Virus record (IMG/VR): IMGVR_UViG_2645727810_000007
DNA: 26,847 nucleotides
From: a virus
Lineage: Duplodnaviria > Heunggongvirae > Uroviricota > Caudoviricetes
Direction: 5' to 3' (one strand)
Shown here: positions 2,889 to 7,753 of the stretch, in pieces
Position numbering within the stretch: the first letter of the stretch is position 1
How the letters are laid out: each line of letters begins with the position of its first letter
Position numbers and translations under genes: made by a program
The notes under the pieces: generated by a model
What the model was told of the DNA's origin: nothing
Database searches by the model: none
The model's input: only the letters and a program-made list of their open reading frames with translations

Positions 2889-3577
2889 GTCGGTTTATCC
2901 GTTGCATTGGAATTTATTGTTGCTCCACCACTTTGTACACCTGAAACAGAATGTTTGTGATTGTTATAGTTGTCCCTTAAATTTTTAACAGTAGATGACT
3001 GTGAACTTGCGTTATCCTGAATATCACCGCTAACTTTAAGTAAAGGAGTATTCATGTTGACTCCATCAGGAGCATCAATATTTAACGATGAACATTTAAT
3101 ACTTAGTGGGTTAGGCGTGGTTATGTTTATTGCACCATCAGCAAATTCAATGAATTGAGTAGGTGCAATATTTAATACCCCACCAAGATAAATTGCATCA
3201 GATTTACTGTGTCGCCTTTTGCTTCCAGGTACTGATTCTTTACGATTTTTTCTTACCAGTGATGTGTCTTTGTCGCATATCGCAATCAGACCAATATCAC
3301 CCGCCACAGGGTCCATAATTACAGCGCTGTTTCCTCTCTGCAACCGCCATACGGGAAGATCATATAAAACCGAGTTAGAAATCATTTTTCCTGTACGGTC
3401 TGTTCTGGTTAGTAAAGGAAGAGCGTCAACAACTAAATCCGGTGCTTCCCCCCTGACTTCCTGAACTCTCGCTAACTCAATGAAGAAATATCCAGACATC
3501 AGCATCTCAAAAATATATTCCTGAGATTGTGCCTCACTTACCTGAGCAGGTGTTGGAGTAAATAGTTGCTTATCCAT
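2885..3577 (-). CDS. Baseplate spike/assembly protein (gpV-like by position)
   Basis: ORF track gives 2885..3670, but the first ATG that does not run far into the upstream gene is at 3577..3575 (MDKQLFTP...), overlapping the upstream stop by 8 nt. Function is from gene order. Confidence 0.4.
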   Translation of the reverse strand: MDKQLFTPTPAQVSEAQSQEYIFEMLMSGYFFIELARVQEVRGEAPDLVVDALPLLTRTDRTGKMISNSVLYDLPVWRLQRGNSAVIMDPVAGDIGLIAICDKDTSLVRKNRKESVPGSKRRHSKSDAIYLGGVLNIAPTQFIEFADGAINITTPNPLSIKCSSLNIDAPDGVNMNTPLLKVSGDIQDNASSQSSTVKNLRDNYNNHKHSVSGVQSGGATINSNATDKPT

Positions 3578-4451
3578 TATTCTGTTGTGCCTCTGCTCTT
3601 TGTTCTGCTGTTCTGGCGGCAATACATATTGAGTGCCACGAACCATTTGGCATCCATGATGATAATTCATGCCGAACGGAGGTTAACTTATACCTTCCGC
3701 TTGCATGTGGTAGTTCTGTTTTGATATCCACATATCTTCCAATGCAAAGGAGAGATGAATATTGCGTCTGAAACATCAGTCCCCCATTTGAAAATACAGG
3801 ATATCCAACAAGTCCGTATTCTCTGGATATAAACGGAATTACATCGTCTCTGTTTTTTTCTGAAGGCCAGAACTCTACTTTTGTCGGTGGCGTGGCTGAC
3901 ATCGCCAGTCCATAATCTGAACAGACCCTATAAAGTTGCTCAAAAACACTTCCTTCAAAATGCGGACTTCCTGATGTTGTCATCCCTTTTACATTATTAA
4001 ACACAGCCTCATAACCTGCACTTGCACAAATGGATGAGATGACATCTTCAACACTTTGCGCACCCTGCGCTGTAAACGGGCTTGCTGGCATGTTCTGTAA
4101 ATCAACATTAGAAGAGGCTGTTATCATCAGACTGCTTTCAGGAGCAGAATTCATGTTTGCTATTGATGAAAGCATCGTGCCGGAGAAAACAAGAGAATCA
4201 TCAGCAAATACCTCAACATTTAACTTCTGACCTTCCCCAACAATACCATCAGCCTTCCCTGATATATCAGCAAGTCTTTCAATTCCTAACCCGTAAAGAG
4301 ATATATCAGCCTGAGCACCTCCCCGACCGGTAACAAAGTTCAGGGATACTGTTGACTTAACATTTCTGATAGAGATTTTATTGTTTCCATTTTTATCAAA
4401 TGCTGATGATTCATTCGTGAAGTCAAACCGAAGACTGTGATTTTTATACAA
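3570..4451 (-). CDS. Tail/baseplate hub-like protein (Mu P / P2 gpD position)
   Basis: Long ORF 3570..4559. Both in-frame Met codons lie inside the preceding gene. An in-frame TTG at 4451..4449 with a GAGGA Shine-Dalgarno 9 nt upstream overlaps the upstream TAA. Start is uncertain. Confidence 0.35.
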   Translation of the reverse strand: MYKNHSLRFDFTNESSAFDKNGNNKISIRNVKSTVSLNFVTGRGGAQADISLYGLGIERLADISGKADGIVGEGQKLNVEVFADDSLVFSGTMLSSIANMNSAPESSLMITASSNVDLQNMPASPFTAQGAQSVEDVISSICASAGYEAVFNNVKGMTTSGSPHFEGSVFEQLYRVCSDYGLAMSATPPTKVEFWPSEKNRDDVIPFISREYGLVGYPVFSNGGLMFQTQYSSLLCIGRYVDIKTELPHASGRYKLTSVRHELSSWMPNGSWHSICIAARTAEQRAEAQQNNG

Positions 4452-4746
4452 GCTCGTTTTCCTCGATGTAATACAACAAGTAACGGCTACCCAAGCCTTC
4501 CCATTGCGGGTCCGATTCCCCATCGTTATCAATGAAAATAAGGTCTCCCTTAAATCCAAGGTAGGAATATCTTACCATTTTATTCCCATACAGACATGGA
4601 ACGCCCTGCATAATTGGAACTTCATTAACAGTTAAATCCATGTACATAAAACTCTGTCGCTGAACAAGTTTTATATTACATTGCTGACCAGCCAGACTTA
4701 CCGAAATGGACTGAGATTTGCTGGGAAGAACAGATACTGTAATCAT
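4444..4746 (-). CDS. Hypothetical tail protein
   Basis: 100-aa ORF. ATG at 4746..4744 overlaps the upstream stop as ATGA (translational coupling), inside the tail gene string. Confidence 0.4.
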   Translation of the reverse strand: MITVSVLPSKSQSISVSLAGQQCNIKLVQRQSFMYMDLTVNEVPIMQGVPCLYGNKMVRYSYLGFKGDLIFIDNDGESDPQWEGLGSRYLLYYIEENELV

Positions 4747-5558
4747 GTACTCGCCTTAACTATATTTTTTGCAATATCTGCCGCTTTTTTTGTTGCGCTG
4801 TTTGTAACTTCGAGTATTGGTTTAGACACCGTATCAAGAGCACTCTGAAATTCAGTCGTGATTGTGCCGGAGATTTTTCCAGTGATTCCGCCAACAGATG
4901 ACTTCAGTGATGACCATGATTTACTTAGCTCATCGACAGTAGATTCCCTGGCTCCGCCATTGGTTATTTGCGGATCAACTCCTACATCTCCCTGTGACTT
5001 ATTGTTATCCGTTGGCTTCTGTTCCGACTGAGATCCAGAGAGGATAACCTCCATTTGCTGAATGACCTCCTGAAAATCAAGATAAACCGTCAGAAGAGTC
5101 ACCCCTTTTTGAGAGTTAACTTCGTAATAGTGGTCAACAAGGTCGAAACTCTCCAGAGTTTCCTTTGGCGTTTCAATGTCGTATGTTTTTGCAGAGGACA
5201 GCATCGTTTTGATTGTGTTCAGCGTGCTGTTCTGGCTTGTGAATGTTAGATCGAAAATATTCGGGATATTGCCGGAAAAACCAGTAAGACCATTTACGAT
5301 GATTGCGCATCTTACCCTGGCGGGTTCTTTAACTTTGTTGATGGACTGGTATTTCCCTTTCTCCACCGGAGCGTTTGTTATTTGCGCCCTGCCACTTGGC
5401 TGTACGGATGCCATACCACTGAACTCAAGAGCAACCTCGCCAGTTTCCCTGTCACGAATCACATACTGAGGATGCAGAACGCCGTCGATGATCGAAAGCG
5501 GAGAGCCACCACCGATAGCATTGAATATGTCTGCTGTGTTTAAATCGATTATGCCCAT
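4743..5558 (-). CDS. Tail protein, first gene after the accessory island
   Basis: 271-aa ORF. ATG at 5558..5556 with a GGAG Shine-Dalgarno directly downstream of a minus-strand terminator. No recognisable motif; assigned by position. Confidence 0.4.
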   Translation of the reverse strand: MGIIDLNTADIFNAIGGGSPLSIIDGVLHPQYVIRDRETGEVALEFSGMASVQPSGRAQITNAPVEKGKYQSINKVKEPARVRCAIIVNGLTGFSGNIPNIFDLTFTSQNSTLNTIKTMLSSAKTYDIETPKETLESFDLVDHYYEVNSQKGVTLLTVYLDFQEVIQQMEVILSGSQSEQKPTDNNKSQGDVGVDPQITNGGARESTVDELSKSWSSLKSSVGGITGKISGTITTEFQSALDTVSKPILEVTNSATKKAADIAKNIVKAST

Positions 5559-5570
5559 CTACTCTCCATT

Positions 5571-5595
5571 AAACAAAAACCCAGCCGAAGCTGGG
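5571..5595 (-). terminator. Intrinsic terminator after the KilAC-type gene
   Basis: Hairpin cccagc-cgaa-gctggg (5580-5595). On the minus strand it is followed by TTTTTGTTT (plus a-run 5571-5579). A T-run also follows on the plus side (5596-5605), so it may act in both directions. Confidence 0.55.
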
Positions 5596-5618
5596 TTGGT
5601 TTTTATAAAAAGATTTAA

Positions 5619-6344
5619 TTAGGCTGCGGTAGAAACATTAACTAGATTTCTCAATACTTCAACTCCTTTTGAGTTGTAGCGGAATGCTTCCACCTGTTTG
5701 CTGGAATGCGCAGATTTATCCAGGAAGAACTTCCCGTACTGCTCAGTTTTGAGGTTGTTTGCGTTAGCAATGCGACCACTCTTGTTTGCCGTTACTCCAA
5801 GCTGCTCTGCAACCTCCCCTGCTGAGTAGTAATGCTCTTCTATTGCCGGAAGAGGTATTGCATTAAAACCAACGAGCGGGTTGATTATACTTGCTGCCGC
5901 TGTCTGCTTTGCCTCAGGCGCAAGATTTGGCATCAGATCGAACAGATTGGTAACAGCTTCAACCGTCATTTTCAATGTTCGCGCTTGACGATACTCAACA
6001 AGTCCACTCGACGATTTACCGCTTTTAATGTGCGCTTCTTGCATACTTTCAAGTTTGTCTACAAGTGTTCGGCGAACTGCTTTAGATTCGCGAGCAGCAA
6101 CACGAAGCGCCTGCTTGATAGTCATGGAGATAACATCAATGTCAGCCCCGTTTTTCCGACCTACACTTTTTGTGTAGGTCTCGCCCTCCAATTCATCCTC
6201 AATTTTCTCGATGAATTTGTTGTTACGTACTGATGGCTCTCCACATAACTTGCGAGCTTCATTAACCATCATCAGAAGACTTTGGCTGTCAATGGTTTTA
6301 TCCGTGACAACGGATCCGATGTTTGCTACATTCTTCAAAGTCAT
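5619..6344 (-). CDS. Antirepressor-like protein, KilAC-type C-terminal domain
   Basis: ORF track gives 5619..6395. ATG at 6344..6342 has an AAGGAA Shine-Dalgarno. The C-terminal segment (YSAGEVAEQLGVTANKSGRIANANNLK...NSKGVEVLRNLV) resembles the KilA-C/ANT antirepressor domain; this is recalled from memory, not searched. Confidence 0.5.
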   Translation of the reverse strand: MTLKNVANIGSVVTDKTIDSQSLLMMVNEARKLCGEPSVRNNKFIEKIEDELEGETYTKSVGRKNGADIDVISMTIKQALRVAARESKAVRRTLVDKLESMQEAHIKSGKSSSGLVEYRQARTLKMTVEAVTNLFDLMPNLAPEAKQTAAASIINPLVGFNAIPLPAIEEHYYSAGEVAEQLGVTANKSGRIANANNLKTEQYGKFFLDKSAHSSKQVEAFRYNSKGVEVLRNLVNVSTAA

Positions 6345-6413
6345 TAGGCATTCCTTATGTGGTAGTAAGGGTGTGACATAGGCCGCCAGCAGCACACTGG
6401 CGGTTTTCTTTTT
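6339..6413 (+). ncRNA. Predicted sar-like antisense RNA B, antisense to the start of the KilAC-type gene
   Basis: Plus-strand extended -10 TGcTACATT (6324-6332), followed about 50 nt later by a strong plus-strand intrinsic terminator: stem ccgccag (6383-6389) / ctggcgg (6397-6403), loop cagcaca, then TTTTCTTTTT (6404-6413). The RNA would cover the start codon (6342-6344) and Shine-Dalgarno of the KilAC-type gene. Confidence 0.35.
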
Positions 6414-6432
6414 GCGCCGTCCGGCGCACCAA

Positions 6433-7059
6433 TCAATGAATCCATTCCTCGCCGCGCAGTTTTGCCAGCATTGGCTGAGCGTTCTTTACGACAAAATTGT
6501 TGGTATCAAGATTCTTCATTTCACGAAGAAGTGATTTCTTGGTTTCTTCTGACATATAGCGAGTCTCATATGCGATATCGTAAATCCTTCCTGAAAGCTC
6601 AGAACAAATTTGCTTCATTCCTGGGTAGATGTGTTTGCACATTTGTTGACTCTTCTCCATCCACAATTGTAAGTAGCAGAGATTAACCAGCTCTTCGTCA
6701 GTGAACTGTTTTGCAATCGGTGAGCATTCTGTCTGCCGATCCAAAATATCCAGCACCCAGCGGCGGAACTCTTTGGCTACCGGAGTGCGAGCAAACATCG
6801 CGATTAGGTGGGCACCGCGTAGTGAGAAAACTCGCACTTTTTTGCGATAATTTCCTGAGGTACTCACTTCGAGTACCTGAGTCATTCCGGCGCTAAACTC
6901 ATCGCTATACTTGTTATAAATCATTGTTACTGCACGACTATTTGCGCATTTAAGTGCAGATGCAATATTAGATGATGTAAACCAAACACCATGCATATCA
7001 CGGGTGGGCACCAACTCAACTCCGTGGAAGTTGTAATCTGATTTTGCTACAATATTCAT
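6433..7059 (-). CDS. Antirepressor-like protein with Bro-N domain
   Basis: ORF track gives 6433..7143. ATG at 7059..7057 has an AAGGAAA Shine-Dalgarno. The N-terminus (FNFHGVELVPTRDMHGVWFTSSNIASALKC...VRVFSLRGAHLIAMFARTPVAKEFRRWVLDIL) fits the Bro-N pattern. Lies directly downstream of the Arc-like gene, as ant does in P22 immI. Confidence 0.6.
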   Translation of the reverse strand: MNIVAKSDYNFHGVELVPTRDMHGVWFTSSNIASALKCANSRAVTMIYNKYSDEFSAGMTQVLEVSTSGNYRKKVRVFSLRGAHLIAMFARTPVAKEFRRWVLDILDRQTECSPIAKQFTDEELVNLCYLQLWMEKSQQMCKHIYPGMKQICSELSGRIYDIAYETRYMSEETKKSLLREMKNLDTNNFVVKNAQPMLAKLRGEEWIH

Positions 7060-7136
7060 GTTAGTTTCCTTGCATACGGTTACTGACATAGAGGCCCGGT
7101 TTGTGTTCGCGCACTGCCGGGCTTCACTATTTTTAT
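7060..7136 (+). ncRNA. Predicted sar-like antisense RNA A, antisense to the Bro-N gene ribosome-binding region
   Basis: Plus-strand extended -10 TGcTACAAT (7045-7053) just inside the Bro-N gene start. A plus-strand hairpin gcccgg (7094-7099) / ccgggc (7117-7122) followed by a U-rich tract (cuucacuauuuuuauu, 7123-7136) lies in the arc/Bro-N intergenic region. Geometry matches the P22 sar RNA. Confidence 0.35.
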
Positions 7137-7306
7137 TGGGCATTATCTCTTTCCTCTCTCAGGCTTTTAGCCAGTCGCTGCACAATCGCAGAGTTGATAG
7201 AAATTCCATCCATTTCAGCAACACGTCTAATCTCCTCCTTCATTCGCGCTGGCAAACGAAGCTGGAAACTTTGACTTTTACGACCTGTGTAAAGCACATC
7301 TTTCAT
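7133..7306 (-). CDS. arc: Arc-like ribbon-helix-helix repressor
   Basis: ATG at 7306..7304 with a GGGAGG Shine-Dalgarno (the ORF-track start at 7321 is GTG). SFQLRLPARMKEEIRRVAEMDGISINSAIVQRL aligns with P22 Arc (QFNLRWPREVLDLVRKVAEENGRSVNSEIYQRV). Confidence 0.7.
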   Translation of the reverse strand: MKDVLYTGRKSQSFQLRLPARMKEEIRRVAEMDGISINSAIVQRLAKSLREERDNAQ

Positions 7307-7328
7307 AAGTAATCCTCCCACAATGATA

Positions 7329-7381
7329 CCAACTTGGTTCTAGAACCAATTTAACACCATTTATTTTGATGTCAAGTTGGT
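7329..7381 (-). promoter_or_regulatory. Divergent immI-like control region: Pant-like promoter and palindromic operator
   Basis: Minus strand: -35 TTGACA (7375..7370), 16-nt spacer, -10 TAAATT (7353..7348), about 40 nt upstream of the arc ATG. Perfect 16-bp palindrome TTGGTTCTAGAACCAA at 7335-7350 overlaps the -10/+1. Flanking 9-bp inverted repeat accaacttg (7329-7337) / caagttggt (7373-7381). Confidence 0.55.
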
Positions 7382-7417
7382 GCTATTGTTTAGCGAACAT
7401 CTTTACGTTGAGGTCAT

Positions 7418-7738
7418 ATGAGCAAGTTCCCTAGTCATGAAATGGATAGGTTCAATATCAGGCTTCCTGCAGGAATGCGGGATGCTATAGCTGAACGAGC
7501 AAAACGTAACGGCAGATCAATGAACTCAGAGATTGTTCAGATACTGGAAGATGCCTTGAATGCAGAAAATACACTCGGGGAAATAGCAGACAAAATCAAC
7601 AGCGTCTCAGTTCCGCTAAATGTTGATGCGCTAGTTCAACTTCAAGCCCAGGTTATCGCCATGCAAAAAGAAATACAGGAAAAGTTCAGAGAGCAAAACG
7701 AAAAGTTGAGAGAACTGCTAAACAAAAAACCCACCTGA
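7418..7738 (+). CDS. mnt: Mnt-like ribbon-helix-helix repressor
   Basis: ATG at 7418 with a GAGG Shine-Dalgarno. FNIRLPAGMRDAIAERAKRNGRSMNSEIVQILEDAL aligns with P22 Mnt (FNFRMPMEVREKLKFRAEANGRSMNSELLQIVQDAL). C-terminal heptad-like tail. Divergent from the Arc-like gene. Confidence 0.75.
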   Translation: MSKFPSHEMDRFNIRLPAGMRDAIAERAKRNGRSMNSEIVQILEDALNAENTLGEIADKINSVSVPLNVDALVQLQAQVIAMQKEIQEKFREQNEKLRELLNKKPT

Positions 7739-7745
7739 CGGTGGG
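7721..7745. terminator. Terminator between the convergent mnt-like gene and the 7754..8722 gene
   Basis: Hairpin cccacc-tgac-ggtggg (7730-7745) overlaps the mnt TGA. On the minus strand it is followed by TTTTTTGTT (strong); on the plus strand by a short TTT (weak). Confidence 0.6.
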
Positions 7746-7753
7746 TTTCATAA

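Follow-up and report, generated by a model that had tools for sequence, protein, structure and literature searches.

A probable P22-type immI antirepressor control module in the late tail operon of a contractile-tailed prophage

The closest described counterpart of the locus reported here is the immI region of phage P22, which was compared through the annotated record NC_002371. In P22-like phages, the immI components are found in the so-called ant moron, a highly variable region of the late operon (Villafane et al. 2008, PMC2629481). Modules of the Arc/Ant/Arc-like type are also annotated in siphovirus tail clusters, namely those of the Salmonella phage vB_SosS_Oslo, Stx2a_WGPS8 and Klebsiella ST11-VIM1phi8.1. 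Gifsy-type antirepressors, which are said to have been described by Lemire et al. in 2011, are reportedly controlled by LexA (SOS). The locus analyzed here lies in the IMG/VR virus record IMGVR_UViG_2645727810_000007 (Caudoviricetes), a stretch of 26,847 nucleotides which is called the window throughout. It shares with P22 immI the divergent genes for Mnt and Arc homologues, an antirepressor gene (ant) immediately downstream of arc, and the position of the whole module inside a late operon.

From sequence, homology and synteny, it was concluded that the region is very probably a functional-looking immI-type antirepressor control module of the P22 kind, carried as a terminator-bounded moron within the late tail operon of a prophage that has a contractile tail. 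This conclusion was drawn from the divergent homologues of Mnt and Arc, a promoter close to the consensus from which an arc-ant-ant2 operon would be transcribed, a palindrome at the start of that promoter's predicted transcript, the near-identity of the cassette to the immI region of a P22-like prophage, and an empty site at the same position in most relatives of the backbone.

The two repressor genes are separated by 111 bp (7307-7417). An initial annotation of the DNA had named their products as homologues of P22 Mnt and Arc, and this was borne out by reciprocal best matches to solved structures and by direct alignment with the P22 proteins. The mnt-like protein matched P22 Mnt (PDB 1mnt) with a value of 6.7e-8, ahead of Arc at 3.5e-5, and the arc-like protein matched Arc (2e-5) ahead of Mnt (0.058). 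By direct BLASTP, the mnt-like protein was 54% identical to P22 Mnt over 37 amino acids (residues 12-48) and the arc-like protein 42% identical to P22 Arc over 43 amino acids, while no sequence similarity was detected between the C-terminal domains of the mnt-like protein and P22 Mnt. The AlphaFold2 model of the mnt-like protein, computed from the single sequence with no alignment, was of low confidence (mean predicted local distance difference test score, pLDDT, of 66), and for this reason its secondary structure alone was used, that is, two ribbon-helix-helix (RHH) helices and a C-terminal helix. The helices were placed at residues 18-30, 36-62 and 69-102, the last of these comprising 34 residues with a pLDDT of ~82-85 within this low-confidence model. 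As for the DNA-facing residues of the beta strand, the window Mnt has R-N-R where P22 Mnt has H-N-R, and the window Arc has S-Q-R where P22 Arc has Q-N-R. The mnt-like gene is monocistronic, with a predicted promoter in front of it and a terminator behind it, and a Shine-Dalgarno sequence, GAGG, was located at 7410-7413. The PDB entry 9PIO, titled 'Arc family DNA-binding protein', was discarded as irrelevant, its source being a ClpXP substrate study.

The initial annotation had left it to a database search to decide whether the small proteins were RHH components of a toxin-antitoxin system. In its broader form, this alternative holds that both are antitoxins or ParG/omega-type partition proteins and not immI regulators. 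Weak secondary Pfam matches of the RHH proteins to HicB and to FitA-like RHH families point in that direction, and so does the name 'partition protein ATPase' given to Mnt homologues in PHROG and RefSeq. The toxin-antitoxin reading fails, however, because the gene that comes after arc encodes a Bro-N/P22_AR_C antirepressor and not a toxin, and a second gene of an antirepressor family follows it. No toxin domain, ParA, defence-system gene or PADLOC match was found among the neighbours, mnt stands alone between its promoter and terminator, and Mnt and Arc themselves are among the best matches to solved structures. The alternative was thus judged highly improbable. The 'partition protein ATPase' label (PHROG families 795 and 2685; RefSeq) is a propagated misannotation, since P22 mnt itself carries it in NC_002371, and it could mislead automated readers.

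A -35 TTGACA and a -10 TAAATT reading toward arc had been reported within the 111-bp divergent region, and all of these elements were present. The promoter, designated Pant, was the top sigma-70 match within 5500-9500, with 10 of the 12 consensus positions. Its -10 hexamer (7353..7348) is TG-extended, and the hexamers together with the TG are at least 90% conserved across 25 distinct homologous intergenic regions. The 16-bp palindrome was likewise found to be perfect and to overlap the -10 and the start, though at 7334-7349 and not at 7335-7350 as first given; of the 9-bp inverted repeat described with it, the right arm (7373-7381) was placed correctly and the left arm lies at 7328-7336 instead of 7329-7337. 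Such a palindrome is unremarkable by itself, because shuffled sequences gave an expectation of ~0.4 perfect palindromes of at least 16 bp per 26.8 kb and the window contains two. Its weight comes from its position directly after the -10 in a short divergent region and from its conservation in homologues, the outer TTGG/CCAA being retained in the 25 distinct intergenic regions and in 40/41 modules of the same Mnt class. The other perfect 16-bp palindrome of the window, TCGATAATATTATCGA at 14261-14276, is found ~20 bp from the point (14294 to 14298) at which the prophage of E. coli KCJ3K291 has an extra HNH endonuclease gene; its place beside the HNH insertion point may reflect a homing-site polymorphism.

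The protein that uses the palindrome at Pant was sought among 83 distinct mnt-arc modules from fetched loci, in which each protein was classed by its three DNA-facing beta-strand residues. The motif TGG-N8-CCAA after the Pant -10 was present in 40 modules of Mnt class R-N-R and missing from 1, and in all other Mnt classes it was present in 0 and missing from 42; these are counts of distinct modules, which are not phylogenetically independent. Recombinant combinations of Mnt and Arc classes, unlike the raw module counts, are independent. Within Arc class S-Q-R, 32 modules had the motif and 17 lacked it. The motif follows the Mnt class and not the Arc class, and therefore the palindrome is most likely the Mnt operator, at the same position as P22 Omnt.

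The roles could also be reversed: the Arc-like protein would then regulate its own synthesis through the palindrome, and the site of action of Mnt would be a different one, for example that overlapping the -35. The palindrome is indeed nearer to arc, its centre TCTAGA includes TAGA, the box of the P22 Arc operator, and the central TAG is invariant among homologues. This TAG, however, coincides with the predicted Pant start, which provides another cause of conservation, and P22 has its Mnt operator in just this place, directly after the -10. Moreover, TGG-N8-CCAA co-occurs with five Arc classes (S-Q-R, V-N-R, Q-S-R, R-T-N and A-N-R), and it is lost where Arc S-Q-R is paired with Mnt R-T-R or K-M-R, palindromes of GCATCA-N3-TGATGC or GTCAC type being found instead. 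A reversal of roles was accordingly considered unlikely, and the assignment of the palindrome to Mnt was retained.

A comparison of the 25 distinct intergenic regions belonging to class R-N-R gave a conserved footprint of ATAGCACC.ACTTGACA ... TG.TAAATTGG...TAG..CCAA.TTG, the palindrome part of which is TTGG-N3-TAG-N2-CCAA-N-TTG. The footprint covers both promoters, the outer TTGG/CCAA of the 16-mer and an overlapping 11-bp palindrome, ACCAACTTGGT. Since the inner palindrome positions vary among relatives, the conserved unit is a set of ACCAA/TTGGT half-sites and not the perfect 16-mer.

A comparison with the KCJ3K291 prophage, a sister of the same backbone, showed ~93-99% identity everywhere save 6412-7465, the counterpart of which is 9916-11230 in KCJ3K291. 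The replaced block consists of ant, arc, the operators and exactly codons 1-16 of mnt, with the right junction at mnt codon 17. Because all of these fall in the swapped block, the operators are exchanged together with the parts of Mnt that determine its specificity, namely its N-terminal arm and beta strand. In the IMG/VR loci, Mnt R-N-R was seen to pair with the half-site GCACCAA/ACCAA and Mnt R-T-R with GCATCA, one residue and one base apart, which is possibly a natural recognition-code pair.

Table 1. Positions of the features of the locus within the window
Feature	Position	Strand	Details
Whole island	5559..9407		3.85 kb: ant2, ant, arc, mnt, P63C-domain gene, orf157
immI cassette proper (ant2, ant, arc, operators, mnt)	5575..7747		limits of blastn and megablast homology
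Left-edge bidirectional terminator-like hairpin	5578..5597		terminator scan, both strands; coincides with homology breakpoint 5575
ant2, second antirepressor-family gene	5619..6344	-	241 aa; phrog_1726 'anti-repressor' E=3e-96
Predicted second sar-like unit, sar2	6324..6413	+	extended -10 TGcTACATT 6324-6332; start ~6339; hairpin 6381-6405
ant, antirepressor	6433..7059	-	208 aa; Pfam Bro-N 8e-9 and P22_AR_C 4e-13; phrog_245 'anti-repressor Ant' 1.5e-50
Predicted sar-like antisense RNA	7045..7137	+	extended -10 TGcTACAAT 7045-7053 within ant codons 2-5; start ~7060
arc-like RHH repressor	7306..7133	-	57 aa; Pfam Arc (PF03869) E=9e-12; first gene of the arc-ant-ant2 operon
Composite operator ACCAAC-TTGGTTCTAGAACCAA	7328..7349		16-bp palindrome overlapping the 11-bp palindrome ACCAACTTGGT (7328-7338); predicted assignment to the Mnt-like protein
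16-bp perfect palindrome TTGGTTCTAGAACCAA	7334-7349		from the final 2 bp of the Pant -10 to ~+8
Pant-like promoter	7348..7375	-	-35 TTGACA 7375..7370; 16-nt spacer; TGt + TAAATT 7356..7348; predicted start ~7341
Imperfect dyad ACATCA-N5/6-ATGGTGT (arc direction)	7354..7370		in the Pant spacer; positional equivalent of P22 Oarc; candidate Arc operator
Upstream site GTCAAGTTGGT	7371..7381		9/11 copy of the 11-bp palindrome ACCAACTTGGT; overlaps the Pant -35
Predicted Pmnt	7381-7389	+	extended -10 TGcTATTGT; start ~7396; listed with the upstream site as 7371..7389
mnt-like repressor	7418..7738	+	106 aa; Pfam Arc (PF03869) E=1.6e-20; N-terminal RHH domain and long C-terminal helix
Right-edge bidirectional terminator-like hairpin	7726..7749		ends mnt (+) and the P63C gene (-); coincides with breakpoint 7747
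P63C-domain protein gene	7754-8722	-	322 aa; phrog_2384, unknown function
orf157	8932-9405	+	157 aa; hydrophobic N-terminus; no family match

The predicted promoter of mnt, Pmnt, was placed according to the conserved block ATAGCACC.ACTTGACA, which lies just outside the Pant -35 and shows conservation of 90% or more across all 25 distinct R-N-R intergenic regions. Read on the + strand, this block includes the TGCTAT of the proposed extended -10. RNA polymerase footprints at the two promoters would overlap, and so the P22 logic can hold, by which a weak Pmnt is shut out by a strong Pant until Mnt lifts the exclusion. A Pmnt located as in P22 within the Pant spacer (TCTAGA-17-TATTTT) was rejected, as that stretch is unconserved in homologues, unlike the TGcTATTGT sequence. 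The 9-bp inverted repeat was found to be the core of a 17-nt imperfect repeat (7320-7336 / 7373-7389) with 82% complementarity, and part of its upstream arm is accounted for by the predicted Pmnt -10 and the Pant -35. An RNA structure formed by this repeat was rejected as well, one arm being upstream of the predicted Pant start. At the position of the dyad in the Pant spacer, modules of Arc class V-N-R have a perfect CACCAT-N5-ATGGTG, which was found in two Mnt contexts.

The island is flanked by the stop of the tape-measure gene at 9408 and the start of the first baseplate or Dit-like gene at 5558. Genes for the sheath (DUF3383, phrog_205), an SLT-domain tape-measure protein, the baseplate hub, wedge/J and plug were identified around it, and thus the placement between the tape-measure and baseplate genes of a sheath-containing tail, first made from the letters of the DNA, was upheld. 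Positions 5575-7747 had a counterpart with 98.6% identity (blastn) in E. coli 19KM2326N, namely the immI region of a P22-like prophage. In this prophage, DNA-transfer genes are found on one side and the tailspike gene on the other, which is the canonical immI position. The exact cassette type adjoins a P22-type tailspike at 13 IMG/VR loci, and on the myovirus-like backbone it was seen in the window and one identical contig only. This contig, IMGVR_UViG_3300015184_000023 (26,652 bp), has an identical island with its flanks, the tape-measure, orf157, P63C and Dit proteins being 100% and the ant and ant2 products 99% identical, and the two records probably represent one element. The exact combination was found in no complete E. 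coli RefSeq genome. When the backbone was compared with INPHARED, no close sequenced phage was found, and the sole match was a Vibrio phage at 70% identity.

Relatives of the backbone were examined at 20 loci from other Enterobacterales. In most of them only 5-270 bp separate the end of the tape-measure gene from the Dit-like gene, so that the site is empty, and two have mnt/arc(/ant) elsewhere, past the tail-fibre genes. The proposal that immI moves as an independent module was well supported by these empty junctions and by the near-identical copy in the P22-like prophage. The same junction was occupied in several other genomes. In E. coli KCJ3K291 the C-terminus of mnt is as in the window, arc and ant being different ones, and Pluralibacter (5878-7935) has a Mnt with CCCCACGGTGGGG palindromes that resemble P22 Omnt. 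In E. coli STEC299 (3110-5762) and Yersinia nurmii (3155-6242), antirepressor modules were found in which Mnt is replaced by a helix-turn-helix (HTH) domain protein and by an HTH-S24 (CI/LexA-like) repressor, respectively. Since other antirepressor modules occupy it, the junction is a recurrent landing site.

It was also considered that the cassette is a passenger with no role in this prophage, that is, a recent, selfish or decaying moron with an Ant blind to the host prophage repressor, and that its effect is merely transcriptional, through terminators and promoters in the tail operon. The cassette type is far commoner in P22-like contexts than on this backbone, most backbone relatives have no module, and degraded versions are reported for some P22-like phages (ε34 paper, PMC2629481). 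Against this, all open reading frames and signals of the cassette are intact. All E. coli examples of the backbone that were found (3 genomes), as well as two other genera, hold some antirepressor module at exactly this junction, from which it was argued that the backbone uses such a module; in some of them an S24/HTH repressor takes the place of Mnt. The passenger explanation was considered quite unlikely, and a functional-looking control module is preferred.

The initial annotation had left out ant, ant2 and the antisense RNA(s). The start of ant at 7059 is downstream of the arc stop at 7133 on the same strand. The start codon of ant2 was adopted from the RefSeq annotation of near-identical copies, and the ant2 product had no Pfam, NCBIfam or PADLOC match. 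Opposite the 5' end of ant, a sar-like antisense RNA is predicted, with a 5' hairpin at 7060-7087 and a GC-rich terminator hairpin at 7091-7125 followed by a U-run. At the nucleotide level, it could be aligned with P22 sar and Psar through intermediates. An 81-nt stretch folded at -33.3 kcal/mol (z=-4.76), and the terminator helix was 98.7% paired across 17 distinct variants including P22. One pair of this helix covaried with five pair types and another showed a GC/CG exchange, and several positions were G·U. On the ant-sense strand these G·U pairs would turn into A·C mismatches, from which selection of the structure appears to act on the antisense transcript. From alignment and structure, and not from the Rfam model, the element is predicted to be a diverged sar homologue. 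A weak Rfam SymR match at 7057-7128 was treated as chance and merely flags a structured antisense-like element.

A second antisense RNA, sar2, is probable opposite the start of ant2. The unit extends over both the Shine-Dalgarno sequence and the start codon (6342-6344) of ant2, and its hairpin, followed by the TTTTCTTTTT T-run, lies in the ant-ant2 spacer. A Klebsiella phage and 18 distinct variants preserve the TGCTAnnnT motif, the GCCGCCAG/CTGGCGG stems of the hairpin and the T-run; their loops and downstream N-terminal coding sequences are variable.

A mechanism was proposed after the P22 model. In the lysogen, the Mnt-like protein would be made from the weak extended -10 promoter Pmnt and would bind as an oligomer to the ACCAA/TTGGT operator at 7328-7349, and perhaps also at 7371-7381. 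Binding would block Pant and keep the antirepressors off, and the overlapping Pmnt would be freed from competition by Pant. Upon entry of the DNA into a Mnt-free cell, or upon loss of Mnt, Pant would fire and give a burst of arc-ant-ant2 expression, after which Arc would shut Pant down. Antisense RNAs in cis, started within the 5' end of ant and probably also that of ant2, would pair with the ribosome-binding sites and limit translation. Ant and Ant2 would bind and inactivate the primary CI/C2-type repressor of the same or a co-resident prophage (in cis or in trans), leading to induction. Transcripts of the late tail operon would have to read through both terminators to reach the baseplate genes. 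Because the island puts two minus-strand terminators into the tail operon, baseplate expression must depend on such read-through, and in P22 late transcripts are reported to read through the ant moron to gene 9 (PMC2629481).

Several points weigh against this interpretation. Every mechanistic step for this allele is drawn by analogy. In the P22-like E. coli phage Kapi1, a transcriptome showed mnt not to be expressed in lysogens (PMC12922286), and for this reason the rules of P22 may not transfer fully. The dependence among the counted modules, stated above, belongs here too. Pmnt was missed by the consensus promoter scan, owing to its poor -35. The Pant-spacer dyad is weak in the Arc class of the window, and a comparison of intergenic regions by Arc class yielded no clear Arc operator for that class. 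The Ant protein aligns with P22 Ant over the C-terminal 69 amino acids only, at 29% identity, its N-terminal domain being Bro-N. The primary repressor targeted by the antirepressors is not in the window. The Rfam model RF00262 (sar) gave no match to the window at E<=1 over 4.1 kb or E<=10 over ~200 nt, when the P22 control was detected at 97.8 bits. Conservation at the -10 of the sar-like RNA is confounded, since it overlaps conserved ant codons, and the sar2 fold was not significantly better than shuffles (z=-1.76).

A wider proposal was also formulated. According to it, Mnt residues 1-16, the operators, arc and ant would recombine as one block at mnt codon 17, with single beta-strand changes matching single half-site base changes (R-N-R GCACCAA; R-T-R GCATCAA); each antirepressor cistron would have its own sar-type RNA; and podovirus and myovirus-like prophages would share immI immunity and cross-induce. 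The last part would follow because the same allele sits in P22-like podovirus and in myovirus-like prophages. Taken jointly, these statements are tentative and rather doubtful. If true, they would describe an inter-prophage communication network spanning morphotypes.

The immI/antirepressor switch is evidently not confined to P22-like podoviruses, as the terminator-bounded cassette enters the tail operons of siphovirus-type and, here, contractile-tailed elements. This bears on the prediction of cross-induction and cross-immunity of co-resident Enterobacterales prophages, including Stx phages with a sister allele. The pairs of Mnt beta-strand class and operator half-site form a natural specificity dataset that could extend the classic Arc/Mnt recognition studies, and tandem antirepressor genes may prove to be each guarded by an antisense RNA of their own. 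Of specialist interest are the table of Mnt-class/operator covariation, the block swap at mnt codon 17 and the predicted second antisense RNA.

The remaining part of the island holds the P63C-domain protein gene and orf157, neither of which had a PADLOC or NCBIfam match. The P63C gene also adjoins mnt in the Lederbergvirus vB_EcoP-611R6. Upstream of its start and overlapping it, at 8722-8811 on the minus strand, four copies of a 10-bp element, ATGCAAGCAT/ATGCTTGCAT, are arranged around a TTGCTT-18-TATAAT promoter with their orientation alternating, and the last copy overlaps the start codon. The array looks like an operator array of an unknown regulator, and Rfam miRNA 'hits' at the same positions were nothing more than the repeat hairpin. 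In the tail-fibre region, a 14-bp perfect palindrome, TGGCAATATTGCCA, at 577-590 resembles the TGCCA/TGGCA half-sites of mnt-arc intergenic regions of the Stx-phage class, probably by chance.

Compared with the known systems, the locus represents a known type of switch in a new allele and a new genomic setting, and no new mechanism. With P22 immI it shares the order of -35, -10, palindrome, Shine-Dalgarno sequence and arc, P22 Omnt being found directly after the Pant -10. Also shared is an antisense promoter of the form TGcTAyAnT in the first ant codons (TGcTATACT in P22, TGcTACAAT in the window), from which an antisense RNA with two hairpins would run as far as the arc stop codon; P22 sar starts just upstream of the ant ATG. 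The initial annotation had stated that the operator differs from those of P22, and the Omnt core GGTCCACGGTGGACC and Oarc ATGATAGAAGCACTCTACTAT of NC_002371 were in fact unrelated in sequence to the palindrome of the window. The half-sites are ACCAA/TTGGT in the window and GGTCCAC in P22, next to the R-N-R and H-N-R beta strands of the respective Mnt proteins. The predicted Pmnt -10 is outside the Pant -35 in the window but within the Pant spacer in P22. P22 Oarc lies between the Pant -35 and -10, where the window has a weak dyad and no clear Oarc was found. The C-terminal domain of the window Mnt is longer than that of P22 Mnt, a helical domain for tetramerisation, and is not similar to it in sequence. 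The window Ant has a Bro-N N-terminal domain and shares P22_AR_C alone with P22 Ant. Unlike P22, the window contains the additional antirepressor gene ant2, to which a separate antisense unit apparently belongs, and was not matched by the Rfam sar model. The location differs too: the module adjoins the tailspike gene in P22, and in the window it is flanked by the tape-measure gene and the baseplate genes of a myovirus-type tail.

The ant moron and the siphovirus modules are likewise variable, independently expressed insertions in late operons with mnt, arc and ant, and the mobility of the module is already documented in principle by them. In vB_SosS_Oslo, the palindrome and the N-terminus of Mnt are the same as in the window. 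The window differs from this group in its sheath-bearing backbone (DUF3383 sheath, baseplate J) and in the insertion at the tape-measure/baseplate junction. With the Gifsy-type modules, the locus has in common antirepressor genes that lie away from the main immunity region and would inactivate a primary repressor in trans. It differs from them in that no LexA box (CTGT-N8-ACAG, with up to 1 mismatch) was found in 7307-7417 and no S24 repressor is encoded, control being assigned to Mnt and Arc. The resemblance to the SOS type is seen at the same junction in relatives, with the HTH-S24 repressor of Y. nurmii and the HTH-domain protein of STEC299.

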